From a virus: a stretch of DNA of 14,968 nt. The position numbers and the translations under genes were made by a program. How positions within the stretch are numbered: the first letter of the stretch is position 1; every line of letters starts with the position of its first letter. Where the stretch lies: IMG/VR virus record IMGVR_UViG_3300010413_000285; one strand, given 5' to 3'. The notes beneath the pieces were generated by a model. It did not search any database, was not told where the DNA came from, and worked only from the letters and a program-made list of their open reading frames with translations. Positions 5,445 to 11,385 of the stretch are shown here, in pieces.

Positions 5445-6374
5445 ATGAAATGGTTGTGCATGTTAATAGGTATGATTTCTATAGGATCATGCGCTACCAC
5501 TATTCCGCCTGAAATTTTAATAATACGCAGACATGAGCAATATGCTAAGTTAGATATAGAGGAGAAAAAACTAGCCGAAAAAATAATGAGCAAGGCTGTT
5601 CGTAATGACAGAAAGAAATATTATTTTGAAAAGCTCAAGTTATTGCTAGATACCCCTACTGCATCGCGTTCTGTGATTGGTGAGGCGCAAAAGAAAGAAA
5701 TTAAAAAATCGATACAAGAAAGCAAAGAAGAGAGACAGGCCGCAGTAAGTGAAAGAAAAACCAGCGTAGAAGAATATATGACTCAGGAAGAATTCTATGA
5801 GTCTGCAAAAAGCGATAGGCATTGGCGTGGATATTCTCCGGAAGGTTGGGATCAAACCTATTTTTATGTAGTTGATGATGACCCACTTGATTTATTAGTA
5901 CATATTCGTGTGCGCCTGTTAGGAGATATAGAAGATATCGAACGTATCTTACAGTTAGAAGATTCAATCGAGAAGCACTTATACATTGAAGGATTCTCAG
6001 TTAATTTGGTATTTGTAGGATGTTCTGATGATAATGACGATGTATTCGATGTTAATGTTGATTCTAGTAAATGGCCGACTAGTCATAATTGGACGGGTGG
6101 ATATCAAGGACTAGCTCATGAACTTATGCACCTGATGGGCCTTCCAGATGAATATGATAGAATAGAGAATCATGCTAATAATAAGTTTCTTCCTATCAAG
6201 CGGCGCTTGGAATTATTTTTAGAACAAATGGACGAAGAAGTTCCCGCAGATGCATATAAGGGAATCATGTGTAACCATTTTAGAAAGCCTTTAGAAAGAC
6301 ATGTGTGTGCTGCTGTAGGACTTGGCGAGGCTTGTATTAAAGCTAGAATGAAGGCATTTCATTCGAAGGAATAA
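5445..6374 (+). CDS. lipoprotein with an HExxH zinc-metallopeptidase-like motif (HELMHLMGLPDEYD)
   Basis: GGAGG (5433-5437) 7 nt before ATG 5445. The track start at 5379 is in frame but lacks an RBS. Signal peptide MKWLCMLIGMISIGSC carries lipobox IGSC. Motif pattern is HExxHxxGxxDE. Confidence 0.7.
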   Translation: MKWLCMLIGMISIGSCATTIPPEILIIRRHEQYAKLDIEEKKLAEKIMSKAVRNDRKKYYFEKLKLLLDTPTASRSVIGEAQKKEIKKSIQESKEERQAAVSERKTSVEEYMTQEEFYESAKSDRHWRGYSPEGWDQTYFYVVDDDPLDLLVHIRVRLLGDIEDIERILQLEDSIEKHLYIEGFSVNLVFVGCSDDNDDVFDVNVDSSKWPTSHNWTGGYQGLAHELMHLMGLPDEYDRIENHANNKFLPIKRRLELFLEQMDEEVPADAYKGIMCNHFRKPLERHVCAAVGLGEACIKARMKAFHSKE

Positions 6375-6456
6375 TGAGCCAAGGAACAATTATCCAGATT
6401 TAGGTAACTACTAATAATTATATGCTTCTATAGATTCTATTATATGGAGGCATATA

Positions 6457-6966
6457 ATGAAAAAACTTCTTGAGATATTAGGCTTCATATGGTTGCTGCC
6501 ATTTACTTTACTTATGTGGCTGCTCTATATTTTGCCGCTGATATTATTTAAGGAAGTCAAGTACGTTAGAAAAGCTTCTACATTTGTGTGGGAGTTCTCC
6601 AATCCTATTGATCCCACTAGTTGGTATGATAAGCTATGGGCTAGATGGGGAGGTTGGTCAGGTCCTTGTGTAATTATATTACATGAGGATATGTATAAGA
6701 GTGCTTTTCGTTTGGAAATGGTTAGGAAGCACGAACTTAGACACTGCAAAGATCAATTCAAATGGGGAGTCTTCTTTTACCCCGCCTATATTGTAGCATC
6801 TGCTTGGATTGGATTTACCAATCTGTTTAAAAAACGCGAGAATAAAAAGCATATATACTTGTTCAATCCGTTTGAGATGGCAGCCAGAAAGGATGCTGGG
6901 CAGATAGTGGATGTTCCACGAGAATATTGGCCAGATGGCCCGGATGATTATAATCCTTGGATGTAA
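6457..6966 (+). CDS. membrane protein with an HExxH motif (HELRH), 169 aa
   Basis: GGAGG 6 nt upstream. N-terminal transmembrane helix (LGFIWLLPFTLLMWLLYILPLILF) and a second hydrophobic segment near residue 120. An AT-rich upstream intergenic region may hold a promoter. Confidence 0.7.
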   Translation: MKKLLEILGFIWLLPFTLLMWLLYILPLILFKEVKYVRKASTFVWEFSNPIDPTSWYDKLWARWGGWSGPCVIILHEDMYKSAFRLEMVRKHELRHCKDQFKWGVFFYPAYIVASAWIGFTNLFKKRENKKHIYLFNPFEMAARKDAGQIVDVPREYWPDGPDDYNPWM

Positions 6967-6967
6967 G

Positions 6968-7306
6968 ATGATTAAATCAATCACCATAGCTAACAGAGAT
7001 GATGGATGCCAAGACTGCAAACTTACTGCCAAAAGAGTAATTGAAAGAAAACCTTCTTTGTGGCAGCGTCTTTGGCATAAAACAGAACCATACATAGAAA
7101 TCAAAGTTGAAGTATGGTATGGAAGGTCAGCATGGTGGAAACCTATGGGCTTTTCTAGGCAGATAAACGCCTGCGAGACGTGGATGTTTGATAGGGTTTG
7201 GGGTCTGCATTGTGAAGAAAAGAAAAGACAGAGCGTTAGAGGCCCTTTTAGAACCACGTTTACAATGAAAGATGGGCAATGGGTACTAAGAGATTCGACA
7301 AGGTAG
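6968..7306 (+). CDS. hypothetical protein (112 aa)
   Basis: The ATG at 6968 is in frame with track ORF 6911 and lies 2 nt after the upstream stop. Trp-rich protein-like sequence. Confidence 0.5.
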   Translation: MIKSITIANRDDGCQDCKLTAKRVIERKPSLWQRLWHKTEPYIEIKVEVWYGRSAWWKPMGFSRQINACETWMFDRVWGLHCEEKKRQSVRGPFRTTFTMKDGQWVLRDSTR

Positions 7307-9527: not shown

Positions 9528-9650
9528 ATGGGCAGTCTGACTTGGTGGCAATGGGCATTAATACTAGGACCAGGTTTCTTTTTAATGCTATCATTGTCAA
9601 TATCTATTACTGCTATAACGTGGTATATTTATGATTGGTGGAAAGAATGA
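9528..9650 (+). CDS. small hydrophobic membrane peptide (40 aa), not in the ORF track
   Basis: ATG at 9528, 3 nt after the upstream stop. Sequence MGSLTWWQWALILGPGFFLMLSLSISITAITWYIYDWWKE. Its stop overlaps the next start as ATGA (9647-9650). Confidence 0.4.
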   Translation: MGSLTWWQWALILGPGFFLMLSLSISITAITWYIYDWWKE

Positions 9651-10195
9651 AGTATGTGATTTTATTATTAGCTTTAAGTGGTTGTGCAATTCCATCTTAT
9701 ACGGTTAGAAATGTCAAAGTATTTGATCGACAAGTAGATACACACATGACACAAAAGCAAGTTGAGGATTTAATCGACTATACTTTTTCTTTTCCTGGTT
9801 GGTCGGAACTTCTATTTGAACATGTAAATATAAAAAGCAGCGAGGACCAGCGACAATTTTTCAATGAAGTCTTTGAGGGCTGGCACTTTGTATTTACTTC
9901 TAATTGGCACGGTGTTATGCTAGAAGATGGACGAATTGCTTTAGTAGATGGTTTGACTATAGCTAAAGACAAAGTTATTTTTCTAAAAGTTTATCCCTGT
10001 TATGGGCACAGTGCCATACTTCACGAAGTTGCTCATGCAATCAGAAATCATTTAGGATACGCAGAAGATCGTAAGCATGAAGATTACGAGTTTTGGATGG
10101 TCATTGGGTGGATTGAAGAAGCAATGATGAAAGAGTTGTGTCCATCAGATTATGTACCTCCCACTGTTCCAGAGAATTTGGAGATTATAGAATGA
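9647..10195 (+). CDS. lipoprotein with an HExxH motif (HEVAHAIRNH), 182 aa
   Basis: The track start is a TTG at 9635. The ATG at 9647 gives MKYVILLLALSGC with lipobox LSGC. GGTGGAAAGA RBS. Motif LHEVAHAIRNH. Confidence 0.65.
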   Translation: MKYVILLLALSGCAIPSYTVRNVKVFDRQVDTHMTQKQVEDLIDYTFSFPGWSELLFEHVNIKSSEDQRQFFNEVFEGWHFVFTSNWHGVMLEDGRIALVDGLTIAKDKVIFLKVYPCYGHSAILHEVAHAIRNHLGYAEDRKHEDYEFWMVIGWIEEAMMKELCPSDYVPPTVPENLEIIE

Positions 10196-10470
10196 AGCGT
10201 TGGTGGGTCTCTTGGTATCACACAGAAGACATGACTCCATTCACATTGCGTAATCCTTGGTGGATTAGTGGTTATAGAATGGCTGACGATGCTGCTTGCG
10301 TATGTGCAGCAGTGATGGCTATAGATGATGATCATGCACGACAAAAAATTATAGATTGCTATGATGAATCTCCAGATAATGTAGAATGGAGGTTTGTGAG
10401 CGTTAAGGAAGATGATTGGTCACCATTCTCTGATAGATTCCCTAAGGGAGATTGGATGGAGTGGGCATGA
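10192..10470 (+). CDS. hypothetical Trp-rich protein (92 aa)
   Basis: The track start is a GTG at 10138. ATG 10192 overlaps the upstream stop as ATGA, with GGAG 8 nt upstream. Sequence MKRWWVSWYH... Confidence 0.5.
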   Translation: MKRWWVSWYHTEDMTPFTLRNPWWISGYRMADDAACVCAAVMAIDDDHARQKIIDCYDESPDNVEWRFVSVKEDDWSPFSDRFPKGDWMEWA

Positions 10471-10757
10471 AATGGTTAATTGCTTGTGCCATTATGGTAG
10501 TTGGGGCTTGCTATATTGAATATGTAAGGAACCATAGATTTTTCCATTTTTTTGGAGCGCAAGTAGATAGTGACTATGTAATGCATTTTGATAATAAAAT
10601 GCGTTGCGCTTATGTGATTGGCTGGTATAGTGAGCGCAAGTGCTTATGCTTTTTAACTGAGGATGATCCTCGTTTAAAAGATAAAACATTAATTGCTTCT
10701 GAACCTTCAGCTTGTAATAAAGACCTTAGGAATTTCGATGCGATTAATCCAGAGTAG
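10467..10757 (+). CDS. hypothetical protein with an N-terminal signal or lipoprotein-like segment (96 aa)
   Basis: ATGA overlap with the previous stop. The track start is a TTG at 10452. N-terminus MKWLIACAIMVVGAC. Confidence 0.5.
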   Translation: MKWLIACAIMVVGACYIEYVRNHRFFHFFGAQVDSDYVMHFDNKMRCAYVIGWYSERKCLCFLTEDDPRLKDKTLIASEPSACNKDLRNFDAINPE

Positions 10758-11385
10758 CTTTCTAACTCTATTTCTAATCGGATGTGGCGCAGGACAAGTA
10801 GATTACTATGAGCCTCCTCCAGTAGAACCATATTGTACATACGACATTAAAGATGTTTGTATTCACGAATATTCTTACTCAGAACATTCGTTTTGTACTT
10901 ATGATGTTGGCGGAATATGTGTATGGTTACAAAGTAGATTTATTGAAGTAGATTTAGATTTCTTGGTTGATTCTATTTTGATTACTGAAACCTATACGAA
11001 TGGTTTTTATTATGGATTAAACTTATTTGATTTAGCATTAACCGAAGGATTAAGACTTGAATATTATCACGCTGGAAACAATACATATGGTGGAACGTAC
11101 GGTTTCTTAGAAGCTAAAGTATGGGTTCGGCAAGGTAGCAATATTACAAGACGCATGACATGTATGGATACATATCATACAGCAATGCATGAGCTTATGC
11201 ACTTCATCGATGATAAATTTATCATGTGTGAAGATCAAAGCTTTGGTGGACATAATGTTCCAAATCTATTTATGGAATGGGAAACACGACAACATATTGC
11301 AGAAGACCGACAATATATCCAATCCAATACAATTGAAGGACTAACCTATTTCAATTTGTCAAATAGGTGTGGTTACGAGGAATAA
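10738..11385 (+). CDS. lipoprotein with an HExxH motif (HELMHFIDD), paralog of the 5445-6374 protein
   Basis: The track start is a TTG at 10693. The ATG at 10738 follows AGGAA and gives MRLIQSSFLTLFLIGCGAG with lipobox LIGC. Motif TAMHELMHFIDD shares the HELMH core with 5445-6374. Confidence 0.65.
   Translation: MRLIQSSFLTLFLIGCGAGQVDYYEPPPVEPYCTYDIKDVCIHEYSYSEHSFCTYDVGGICVWLQSRFIEVDLDFLVDSILITETYTNGFYYGLNLFDLALTEGLRLEYYHAGNNTYGGTYGFLEAKVWVRQGSNITRRMTCMDTYHTAMHELMHFIDDKFIMCEDQSFGGHNVPNLFMEWETRQHIAEDRQYIQSNTIEGLTYFNLSNRCGYEE

Follow-up and report, generated by a model that had tools for sequence, protein, structure and literature searches.

A phage locus encoding four zinc metallopeptidase-like proteins with predicted envelope targeting

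A viral stretch of 14,968 nucleotides (IMG/VR record IMGVR_UViG_3300010413_000285; hereafter, the window) carries, between positions 5,445 and 11,385, four plus-strand open reading frames, A to D, whose products resemble zinc metallopeptidases. The reading we favor, with modest confidence, is that these are four independent zincin-type metallopeptidase-like genes whose products are probably sent to the host envelope and would cleave host proteins there. The reading frames, their HExxH motifs, three lipobox-type leaders and one membrane anchor all lie where the original prediction had placed them, the reading-frame coordinates agreeing exactly (Table 1). Shine-Dalgarno-like sequences precede A, B, and C; that of D is weak, and D overlaps the preceding ORF. 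The region holding the four genes is accessory, all-plus-strand, and studded with tRNAs. It belongs to a large uncultured phage, whose MVP-like gene is closest to those of "huge phage" genomes of 462-735 kb. Among related phage contigs, A and C were found again in conserved positions and B and D were not. None of the four families reached curated Pfam or NCBIfam cut-offs, a PDB sequence search with them gave no significant match, and a PADLOC run returned no match.

Table 1. Positions of the genes and motifs discussed in the text
Feature	Position	Strand	Basis or remark
SPASM-domain (radical-SAM-like) protein, 360 aa	3855..4937	+	SPASM E 5.5e-4; upstream of A
Protein A, 309 aa	5445..6374	+	signal peptide, then N-domain, then catalytic domain
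A lipobox-like IGSC (residues 13-16), Cys16 putative lipidated residue	5481..5492	+	relaxed lipobox pattern
A putative zinc-binding motif HELMHLMGLPDEYD (residues 225-238)	6117..6158	+	invariance in homologues
A Gly-Ile-Met (273-275), candidate Met-turn	6261..6269	+	conservation and model loop
Protein B, 169 aa, membrane-anchored minimal Glu-zincin-like	6457..6966	+	
B N-terminal transmembrane helix (3-32), conserved LGFxWxLPxT	6463..6552	+	hydropathy and model
B HELRH (92-96)	6730..6744	+	on long helix 83-122 running into hydrophobic stretch 103-124
B EMAAR (140-144) inside NPFExxAR	6874..6888	+	Glu140 putative third zinc ligand
Protein C, 182 aa, small lipoprotein-type HExxH	9647..10195	+	ORF
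C lipobox LSGC (10-13), Cys13	9674..9685	+	strict lipobox pattern; Cys13 invariant 7/7
C HEVAH (126-130), then D141-R-K-H144	10022..10078	+	invariance
Protein D, 215 aa, lipoprotein-type HExxH	10738..11385	+	ORF
D lipobox LIGC (13-16), Cys16	10774..10785	+	strict lipobox pattern; C16 invariant 3/3
D HELMH (151-155)	11188..11202	+	invariant 3/3

Motif enrichment and export signals

The 29 plus-strand proteins of the window (4,040 aa) contain five HExxH motifs against 0.28 expected from composition, and four or more were obtained in 0.02% of 5,000 shuffles (P ~2e-4). The fifth occurrence is GNHEYYH in a metallophosphoesterase at 1893-2621. In A to D, the motif is retained by homologues: it is unbroken in 32 of 33 matches to A (32/32 complete sequences; the lone exception is a truncated fragment), in 144 of the top 150 matches to B, and in all sequences of the C (7/7) and D (3/3) families. 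The original prediction had named poor conservation of these residues, or the lack of a third ligand or Met-turn, as arguments against a metalloprotease fold; A has the putative ligand Asp235 and, further downstream, an invariant Met275, and B has an invariant Glu140 downstream of its motif, so neither objection appears to apply to these two proteins.

A lipoprotein pattern (positively charged n-region, hydrophobic h-region, and a lipobox with invariant Cys at its end) was recognized at the pattern level in A, C, and D. The lipobox assignments for C and D hold under the strict consensus [LVI][ASTVI][GAS]C, but the noncanonical IGSC of A (Gly at -2) matches a relaxed pattern alone. Most full-length A homologues have a hydrophobic N terminus ending in ...SC(A/S)T, and the A, C, and D families each preserve their export signals. 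The description of B as a membrane protein was borne out by a strong N-terminal hydrophobic helix at residues 3-32 (Kyte-Doolittle 19-residue mean of 2.35; helix 2-30 in the model) and a second, weaker one at 103-124, with a charge bias that is ambiguous for topology. Because each of the four proteins appears to carry its own export or anchoring signal, all are probably placed in the host envelope during infection; we also infer membrane sidedness and, for the lipoprotein-type proteins, lipidation.

Proteins A and B resemble metzincins and Glu-zincins

AF2 modeled both A and B with confidence, and the models match zincin metallopeptidase folds. Behind its lipoprotein-type signal peptide, A comprises a helical N-domain (residues 22-121, ~100 in all) and, from about residue 125 to 309, a metzincin-like catalytic domain. 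In the model, the latter has the sheet, active-site helix, and C-terminal helix of a metzincin. Residues H225, E226, H229, G232, D235, and Y237 are invariant in the 19 aligned sequences, and the string HELxHxxGLxD found in all of them conforms to the extended metzincin motif HExxHxxGxx[H/D]; HEXXHXXGXXD is the motif of Asp-ligand zincins (PMC3890501). The candidate Met-turn occupies a loop between helices 251-261 and 284-290 (DSSP on the model), where the same alignment shows I274 and M275 to be invariant and G273 to be conserved at 90% or more. By this assignment, His225, His229, and Asp235 would hold the zinc and Glu226, as catalytic base, would activate water, with Tyr237 and Ile274-Met275 supporting the site, and the helical N-domain may be a stalk or a latency prodomain. 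The Peptidase M6 thresholds were missed by A (PF05547, 13.5 bits versus 22; TIGR03296, 20.2 bits versus 110.8), and sub-threshold M6 matches occurred in 10 of the 19 family members (best E 0.0091). The closest known metzincins with Asp as third ligand are snapalysin (MEROPS M7) and immune inhibitor A/PrtV (M6), but the lipoprotein leader and N-domain of A are absent from M6 and M7, and the distance from Asp to Met is ~40 residues in A compared with ~10 in snapalysin (PMC3890501). The A family was found only in one clade of uncultured phage contigs, and its model and conserved residues suggest a lipoprotein-type metzincin-like enzyme.

The corresponding residues in B are also strongly conserved: across 42 sequences, H92, E93, H96, E140, and R144 are invariant and P15, Q99, N137, and A143 reach at least 90% conservation, and the combination HExxH...ExxAR is intact in 133 of 150 B matches. 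In M48 peptidases, the third ligand lies on an ExxAD-type helix. B has the arrangement that characterizes M48 and M56, namely HExxH and a distal Glu on a following helix, and is not a sequence member of the Pfam M48 or M56 models. Glu140 would be the third ligand, as in M48/M56, and the active site would then sit at the membrane surface; should helix 103-124 cross the membrane, Glu140 and HExxH would be on opposite sides. In approximately 3% of true B relatives the motif is degenerate (HGERH, HNLRH, or HQLQH), indicating that catalysis is not universal in the family. The family comprises at least 200 sequence clusters and occurs in phages and in the chromosomes of diderm bacteria, including Methylophilus, Acidovorax, and Planctomycetes. 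The closest known systems are the M48/M56 Glu-zincins (HtpX, BepA, Ste24, and BlaR1) and the soluble minigluzincins proabylysin and projannalysin. B can also be likened to DUF4157/eCIS_core (PF13699, "PVC-metallopeptidase"), a small HExxH domain tied to phage-tail-like systems. PF13699 was matched by 3 of 42 B-family members (best E 8.4e-6) and DUF6782 by 5 of 42, with no match to either from B itself or most of its relatives, and the Gln that follows the motif (HExxHxxQ) is common to the B family and the PF13699 model. Unlike PF13699, the B family has a conserved transmembrane helix and, at the loci inspected, adjoins neither eCIS nor toxin genes. Together with the model, these features point to a membrane-anchored minimal Glu-zincin of M48/M56-like type.

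Proteins C and D, lipoprotein-type HExxH proteins

Protein C has six relatives, two of which are paralogs in contig L036. H126, E127, H130, D141, H144, W150, C118, and C165 are invariant, including in a paralog of 25% identity, giving the signature HExxH-x10-D-x2-H with two invariant Cys; Asp141 and His144 are the candidates for third ligand. Weak matches recurred to SprT-like proteins and to the N-terminal part of phrog_1314. The SprT-like matches of C and one homologue (E 0.04-0.14) cover the strand-loop-HExxH region and missed the PF10263 threshold (12.5 and 14.2 bits versus 25.6), and hhalign placed 43 columns of C in register with Escherichia coli YggI/SprT at a probability of 4.9%. In both C and the SprT-like/Wss1/Spartan proteins, a His follows HExxH by ~13-14 residues; however, SprT and Spartan are cytoplasmic or nuclear proteins that deal with DNA-protein crosslinks, whereas C appears to be exported as a lipoprotein and has two invariant Cys. 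We propose from these patterns that C is a small disulfide-containing lipoprotein that is faintly SprT-like.

Only two homologues of D were found (71% and 69% identity), both of which keep LxxC and HELxHFIDD; with three sequences and a mean column identity of 85%, conservation in this family is uninformative. The N-terminal part of D contains two CTYD...C repeats. Searches of Pfam, PHROG, and PDB gave no match except one PHROG (E 0.039) that homologues did not reproduce. Given this lack of a reproducible match, and the GNHEYYH of the metallophosphoesterase as a chance HExxH in the same window, it is possible, if doubtful, that the motif in D is similarly incidental and that D is an unrelated secreted Cys-rich lipoprotein. 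Against this, the chance expectation of ~0.3 applies to all 29 proteins together, the local context is zincin-like (AKVWV resembles a strand, AMHELMHFI comes after it, and acidic and His residues lie further downstream), and the spacing around HExxH agrees with that of C.

Relatedness, possible roles, and alternative explanations

The original prediction treated the four proteins as one dispersed family and the HELMH-containing A and D as true paralogs. Neither claim survived comparison: the lowest pairwise BLASTP E-value was 0.15, and hhalign among the four family profiles gave probabilities of 1-8% over 13-22 columns around HExxH, so alignment was limited to the HExxH helix. In HMM-versus-shuffle tests, with shuffles lacking the HExxH motif, the score of A against D was equaled by 19 of 2,000 shuffles and that of C against D by 9 of 2,000, neither significant. 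A history in which duplication inside the phage produced a single paralogous family, with A and D as the closest pair, might be read from the shared HExxH, the lipoprotein-type leaders of three members, and their location within 6 kb on the same strand. C and D are also spaced alike (HExxH-x10-[E]D), each with a Cys 7-8 residues ahead of the motif (hhalign E 0.005), and L036 does hold true C-family paralogs. We nevertheless consider such a history highly improbable, since besides the pairwise results the putative third-ligand layouts differ (Asp with a Met-turn in A, a distal Glu in B, and D-x2-H in C), as does phyletic spread, with B in many unrelated phages and bacteria and A and C restricted to a clade. 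Judged by these comparisons, A, B, C, and D are four separate zinc-protease-like families rather than a single duplicated one.

Some or all of the four might instead be nonproteases, with HExxH in another metal-dependent or structural role; options include a binding or decoy protein, a pseudo-enzyme, a peptidoglycan or lipid hydrolase, or an HExxH-type oxygenase. We regard this as unlikely, because A, B, and C show little or no variation at the putative general-base Glu or at any putative ligand, and the structural neighbors of the A and B models are overwhelmingly peptidases. A more specific suggestion, that the proteins act as RiPP leader peptidases, is weakened by gene order. It supposes that A, and perhaps the others, is a leader or maturation peptidase working with the SPASM/radical-SAM-like enzyme and small or Cys-rich proteins. 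The SPASM gene is directly upstream of A in L001, L002, and L036, the homologue in L036 having a weak Radical_SAM match, and is one gene away in the window, where a Cys-rich secreted ORF (4934-5434) and three small paralogs (2868-3855) adjoin the pair. However, in L034, which has an RNA ligase upstream of A, and in L035, A occurs without the SPASM gene, making this gene a frequent neighbor of A but not an obligate one. None of the relatives has a homologue of the Cys-rich ORF, and no gene resembling a precursor peptide is conserved alongside A. A also appears to be exported, whereas radical SAM enzymes work in the cytoplasm. A role in peptide maturation is thus improbable.

For A to D, we infer metal binding, proteolysis, substrates, and biological role, and the most likely function would be zinc-dependent cleavage of host envelope proteins during infection. 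This could serve to block superinfection or re-adsorption, disable envelope-located host functions, or loosen the envelope before lysis. In Listeria, a phage-derived secreted metzincin renders cells more sensitive to lysis and promotes the release of virions (PMC8235301). This Mtz/Tim system, a secreted metzincin with a TIMP-like lipoprotein, is a functional precedent for A as an envelope-acting metzincin of phage origin. The parallel is one of function, however: Mtz/Tim belongs to a Gram-positive cryptic prophage with a CI/Cro switch, and no TIMP-like partner was found here. Phage lipoproteins that block receptors or DNA entry include Llp of T5 and Cor of phi80/N15. Ltp of Streptococcus phage TP-J34 is another phage-encoded lipoprotein of this kind (PMC3952083). 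Llp, Cor, and Ltp parallel A, C, and D in localization and in one candidate role, but they bind rather than catalyze, lack HExxH, and have no sequence similarity to A, C, or D. A bolder and more tentative reading is that very large uncultured phages of one clade wield an array of unrelated zinc peptidases directed at the envelope that re-engineer the host periplasm and outer membrane, among them a phage-restricted lipoprotein metzincin (A) and a widespread mini-Glu-zincin (B), each without a Pfam, NCBIfam, PHROG, or PDB assignment. If so, B may represent an unrecognized diderm envelope protease system that phages have borrowed.

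The HExxH proteins and their relationships

The four HExxH ORFs of the original prediction (proteins A to D) were recovered at exactly the predicted coordinates and with translations as described (see table). The window is a complete JGI metagenome contig of 14,968 bp, and essentially all of its genes lie on the + strand. Among the 29 + strand proteins, which total 4,040 aa, HExxH occurs five times against 0.28 predicted from amino-acid composition; four or more were reached in only 0.02% of 5,000 shuffles of these proteins. The fifth, GNHEYYH in a metallophosphoesterase, matches incidentally, a caution that the motif by itself is no proof. 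The strict lipobox pattern was matched by C and D and only the relaxed pattern by A; B has a strong N-terminal transmembrane (TM) helix and a weaker hydrophobic helix directly after the HExxH. Envelope-targeted products seem enriched across the whole region. A scan for promoters and terminators gave 28 promoter-like sites in the window against 26.8 expected. Other small envelope-directed ORFs are dense: the strict lipobox IAGC marks one of 43 aa (12561-12692), and one of 96 aa (10467-10757) carries VGAC; the Cys-rich ORF begins with a hydrophobic leader, and two more (8477-8713, 9528-9650) encode small membrane proteins.

Features of the window (nucleotide coordinates; residue numbers refer to the encoded protein)
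Feature	Coordinates	Strand	Details
YunG-like gene	1550-1900	+	E 2e-7
Metallophosphoesterase	1893-2621		contains GNHEYYH
Tandem small paralogs (three)	2868-3152, 3149-3637, 3637-3855	+	N-terminal (K/R)xGF(V/I)SNSSSxSF
SPASM gene	3855-4937	+	360 aa; C-terminal SPASM domain, E 5.5e-4
Cys cluster of SPASM protein	4002-4052		CX12CX2C; CHGIGNYMDSRKPCPWC
Cys-rich small ORF	4934-5434	+	166 aa
Protein A	5445-6374	+	309 aa; HELMHLMGLPDEYD at residues 225-238; IGSC at 13-16
Protein B	6457-6966	+	169 aa; HELRH at residues 92-96
RNase T-type exonuclease	7279-7848	+	E 3e-13
tRNA Arg-tct	8032-8107
Small envelope-directed ORFs	8477-8713, 9528-9650, 10467-10757, 12561-12692	+
tRNA Leu-caa	9177-9264
Protein C	9647-10195	+	182 aa; HEVAH at residues 126-130; LSGC at 10-13
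Protein D	10738-11385	+	215 aa; HELMH at residues 151-155; LIGC at 13-16
tRNA Asp-gtc	11392-11470
NUDIX hydrolase	12034-12564	+	E 2e-8
MVP-like ORF	12797-14968	+	runs off contig end

The original prediction had treated the four proteins as one dispersed family, with A and D as apparent paralogs sharing HELMH. They are not one family: the best pairwise BLASTP match among them had an E-value of 0.15, and profile and shuffle comparisons failed to join them. Family alignments were built (labeled A1, 19 sequences; A2, 3; A3, 5; A5, 7; A4, 42), and hhalign among these returned probabilities of 1-8% over just 13-22 columns around the HExxH helix. Each family HMM was also scored against the other proteins and 2,000 shuffles that did not hold the motif. 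A and D are not paralogs: BLASTP, hhalign and the shuffle test (19/2,000 for A against D, not significant) gave the pairing no support. In both C and D the motif is spaced as HExxH-x10-[E]D and preceded at 7-8 residues by a Cys; remote homology between them is suggestive, but neither hhalign (E 0.005, probability 7%) nor the shuffle test (9/2,000) was significant. This is the only faint link among the four, possibly a very remote relationship beyond sequence methods. For annotation, the lesson is that a common HExxH and lipobox are no evidence of paralogy.

Pfam, NCBIfam, PHROGs and PADLOC gave nothing above threshold for the four proteins and their homologues, and PDB sequence searches with single sequences and profiles of A-D gave nothing significant. 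No matches were returned by tblastn of A-D against 50,697 GenBank phage records, and when the locus was compared with GenBank phages by megablast, a tRNA was the sole match. A-D are new, unnamed families, putatively within a well-known kind of enzyme, the clan MA zincins, and their arrangement is mildly unusual, not categorically new.

Families and predicted folds of A and B

A word-indexed search of 5.8 billion proteins identified 33 relatives of A (41-66% identity), all unnamed metagenome sequences; the IMG/VR scan yielded no A locus. Residues H225, E226, H229, G232, L233, D235, Y237, H243, I274, M275, C288 and C297 were invariant in 19 aligned sequences, HELxHxxGLxDxY was kept in 32/32 complete family members, and …SC(A/S)T closes a hydrophobic leader at the start of most full-length homologues. 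M6 peptidases (InhA, PrtV) carry …GLPDEY. In the motif HEXXHXXGXXD, Asp is the third zinc ligand, and snapalysin (M7) adds a conserved Met (PMC3890501). Sequence models recognized only the motif of A: Peptidase_M6 scored 13.5 bits (cut-off 22) and matched 10 of the 19 family members below threshold, TIGR03296 matched residues 223-241 (E 4.6e-4), and the PDB search gave a snapalysin motif match only (E 1.5). A was not placed in M6 or M7 as such.

The AF2 model of A, made with the A-family alignment as input (pLDDT 88.6, pTM 0.82), runs from a helical region (22-121) through strands and the HExxH helix (220-230) to a G-I-M loop and C-terminal helices. Its structural matches (scores in brackets) were atrolysin C (6.5), astacin (6.3), ADAMTS-5 (6.0), ADAM8 (5.8), ulilysin (5.7), snapalysin (5.5), BMP1 (5.4) and fragilysin (about 5), with 100-124 residues covered at about 3 Å; designed helical bundles interspersed among them align to the N-domain. 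By its conserved residues and predicted fold, A is assigned to a new family that resembles metzincins and combines an Asp ligand with a predicted export/lipidation signal and an extra helical N-domain, which may be either a stalk or a latency prodomain. A Met-turn is probable, and A is quite likely to be a real metallopeptidase.

B alone among the four was searched exhaustively, with HMMER against 1.84 billion cluster representatives. This returned 208 clusters at E ≤ 1e-3, of which 77 reached E ≤ 1e-10; nearly all are 130-190 aa long. Across 42 diverse members (25-54% identity), G66, H92, E93, H96, Y111, E140 and R144 were invariant, P15, Q99, G104, Y134, N137, A143 and A147 were at least 90% conserved, and the signature was HExxHxxQ … NPFExxAR. 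Among the best 150 matches, 144 kept HExxH and 133 the full arrangement. Degenerate motifs (HGERH, HENWGH, HNLRH, HQLQH) occur in four true relatives (P0085, P0088, P0149, P0162) that keep the rest of the fold signature and are possible pseudo-enzymes. The Pfam scan gave no match for B itself; 3/42 relatives matched eCIS_core/DUF4157 (best 8.4e-6), an HExxH domain of unknown role (PMC8213781), and 5/42 matched DUF6782. NCBIfam holds no name for the family, and a BFVD fold search with B returned uncharacterised phage proteins only (TM ≤ 0.5).

The AF2 model of B (pLDDT 95.6) comprises a TM helix (2-30), a small sheet (35-76), a 40-residue HExxH helix (83-122) and a helix bearing E140 (138-146). 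Structural matches were the mini-zincin Acel_2062 (3e11; 5.4), BepA (M48; 5.1), Spartan (5.0), IrrE (4.9), the VgrG2b effector (4.8), M48 peptidase 3c37 (4.8), proabylysin (4.6), projannalysin (4.5), Wss1 (4.5), HtpX (3.8), Ste24 (3.4) and BlaR1 (3.3). Sequence conservation and model together mark B as a predicted minimal Glu-zincin that is anchored in the membrane and has its ligands arranged in an M48/M56-like way; that it is a real metallopeptidase is somewhat likely, a little less so than for A. Positive-inside analysis gave an ambiguous charge pattern.

B belongs to a large unnamed family common to phages and diderm bacteria. The family occurs on 31 IMG/VR viral contigs (7-369 kb) with varied neighbors, including a 5'-3' exonuclease, lysozyme and flanking giant proteins of 1,200-1,580 aa. 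A degenerate DNA pattern scan of genome contigs confirmed 31 bacterial loci, in at least nine Methylophilus as well as in Acidovorax, Planctomycetes, Gemmatimonadales and Acidobacteriota. At 12 betaproteobacterial loci, the gene is convergent to bamD (YfiO), near rluD (L044, L048, L064, L068, L070, L085, L095, L105, L110, L149 and L158 in Methylophilus and relatives; L069 in Acidovorax), and four of the betaproteobacterial loci have a divergent ECF sigma factor gene upstream. These chromosomal copies encode 135-190 aa with HEHVHVRQ…YYDNPFE and lack the aromatic C-terminal tail (…DRWPWW type), whereas phage copies have it. Because the family adjoins bamD in cultivable Methylophilus species, its cellular role is genetically testable. 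The family is large, confidently modeled and unnamed, which makes it the most useful lead, and B is the most interesting and most testable of the four.

Proteins C and D and a possible role at the host envelope

Word search found three relatives of C, and related phage contigs added L001 18750-19301, L036 6449-6925 and L036 5317-5805, the last a second C copy (25% identity); the IMG/VR scan gave no C locus. The two L036 genes are true paralogs within one genome (24% identity), a situation not seen in the window. Invariant in 7/7 sequences were the lipobox Cys (C13), G102, T104, I111, V115, C118, S122, H126, E127, H130, D141, H144, W150, C165 and P175, which gives the pattern HExxH-x10-D-x2-H plus a likely disulfide, in keeping with an extracytoplasmic location. 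The family's weak matches are mutually consistent: two members match SprT-like (E 0.04-0.14), four match the N-terminal 100 positions of phrog_1314 (E 2.4e-5 to 0.03) and one matches Peptidase_M91 (E 0.005). Alignment of C with E. coli YggI/SprT by hhalign put strand, loop and HExxH in register at a probability of only 5%. C is plausible as an envelope-anchored putative metallopeptidase, and the chances that it is a real one are evenly balanced.

For D, two homologues (71% and 69% identity) were all that came from 5.8 billion proteins and from scanning metagenome DNA; they sit in similar small-ORF contexts, and the metagenome scan added nothing beyond the contig already known. The lipobox Cys and HELxHFIDD are conserved, which says little in a family 85% identical overall. 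Database searches with D gave no reproducible match. A likeness of D to M34 peptidases (anthrax LF / PPEP) through HExxHxxDD was considered and rejected, as HMMER lent it no support at E ≤ 10. D remains a putative HExxH lipoprotein; it is possible, if doubtful, that it is a real metallopeptidase, and rather unlikely that its motif is incidental.

As envelope-anchored putative metallopeptidases, the original proposal, A and B are supported, C is plausible and D no more than possible. Catalytic-type residues and export signals are conserved, and zincin folds are predicted for A and B. On what is generally known of lipoproteins and zincins, we infer that A-D would be exported through Sec during infection, with A, C and D acylated at the lipobox Cys and tethered facing the periplasm. 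Because all three lack Asp at +2, they would go to the outer membrane in a proteobacterial host. B would lie in the inner membrane with its active site at the membrane surface. Each could cleave envelope proteins by a Glu-activated, zinc-bound water; the purpose might be to remove receptors or exclude superinfection, to inactivate envelope functions or to weaken the envelope before lysis. To our knowledge, very few phage-exported catalytic proteins act at the host envelope apart from lysis enzymes, and the phage lipoproteins Llp, Cor and Ltp act by binding. As a precedent, a phage-derived exported metzincin in Listeria promotes lysis and virion release (PMC8235301). Should A, B and C prove to be active peptidases, they would constitute new clan MA families and point to proteolytic envelope remodeling (receptor removal, exclusion, pre-lysis weakening) as a phage strategy.

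Genome context and phage identity

Gene order in the related contigs L001, L002 and L034-L037 is metallophosphoesterase … [SPASM gene] A … RNase T-like exonuclease … C … 180-aa protein, NUDIX and MVP-like protein. A occurs in every one of the five distinct relatives whose contigs cover its position, and C in three; B, D and the Cys-rich ORF were absent from these contigs. The SPASM gene precedes A in 4/6 genomes. Its domain match falls just under the cut-off, and its Cys cluster is unusual compared with the canonical CX3CX2C; identity to the L001 protein is 76%, and Radical_SAM is matched weakly by the L036 homologue. An obligate partnership of A with this enzyme is rejected because A occurs without the gene in L034, where a T4-type RNA ligase lies upstream of A, and in L035.

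The MVP-like ORF matches MVP_shoulder (E 3.3e-22) and Vault_3 (E 2.3e-10), and full-length copies of ~845 aa are found in L036 (8847-11390) and L037 (6235-8772). The 12.8-15.0 kb region is one long ORF to the contig end instead of non-coding or recoded sequence. Among GenBank phages the ORF matches only the 'uncultured phage' genomes LR756500, LR756501 and LR756503 (462-735 kb; 45% identity); viral MVPs have been reported (bioRxiv 10.1101/2023.11.10.566534). Phage identity follows from these matches, the tRNAs, and the T4_Y10B and T4_Y16D domains, T4 RNA ligases and depolymerase-type tailspike carried by the relatives. The metallophosphoesterase is most similar to the one of Myxococcus phage Mx1 (35% identity). 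Among the tandem small paralogs, the 162-aa member had no Pfam match; in L001, L002 and L036, the SPASM gene is preceded by several further copies.
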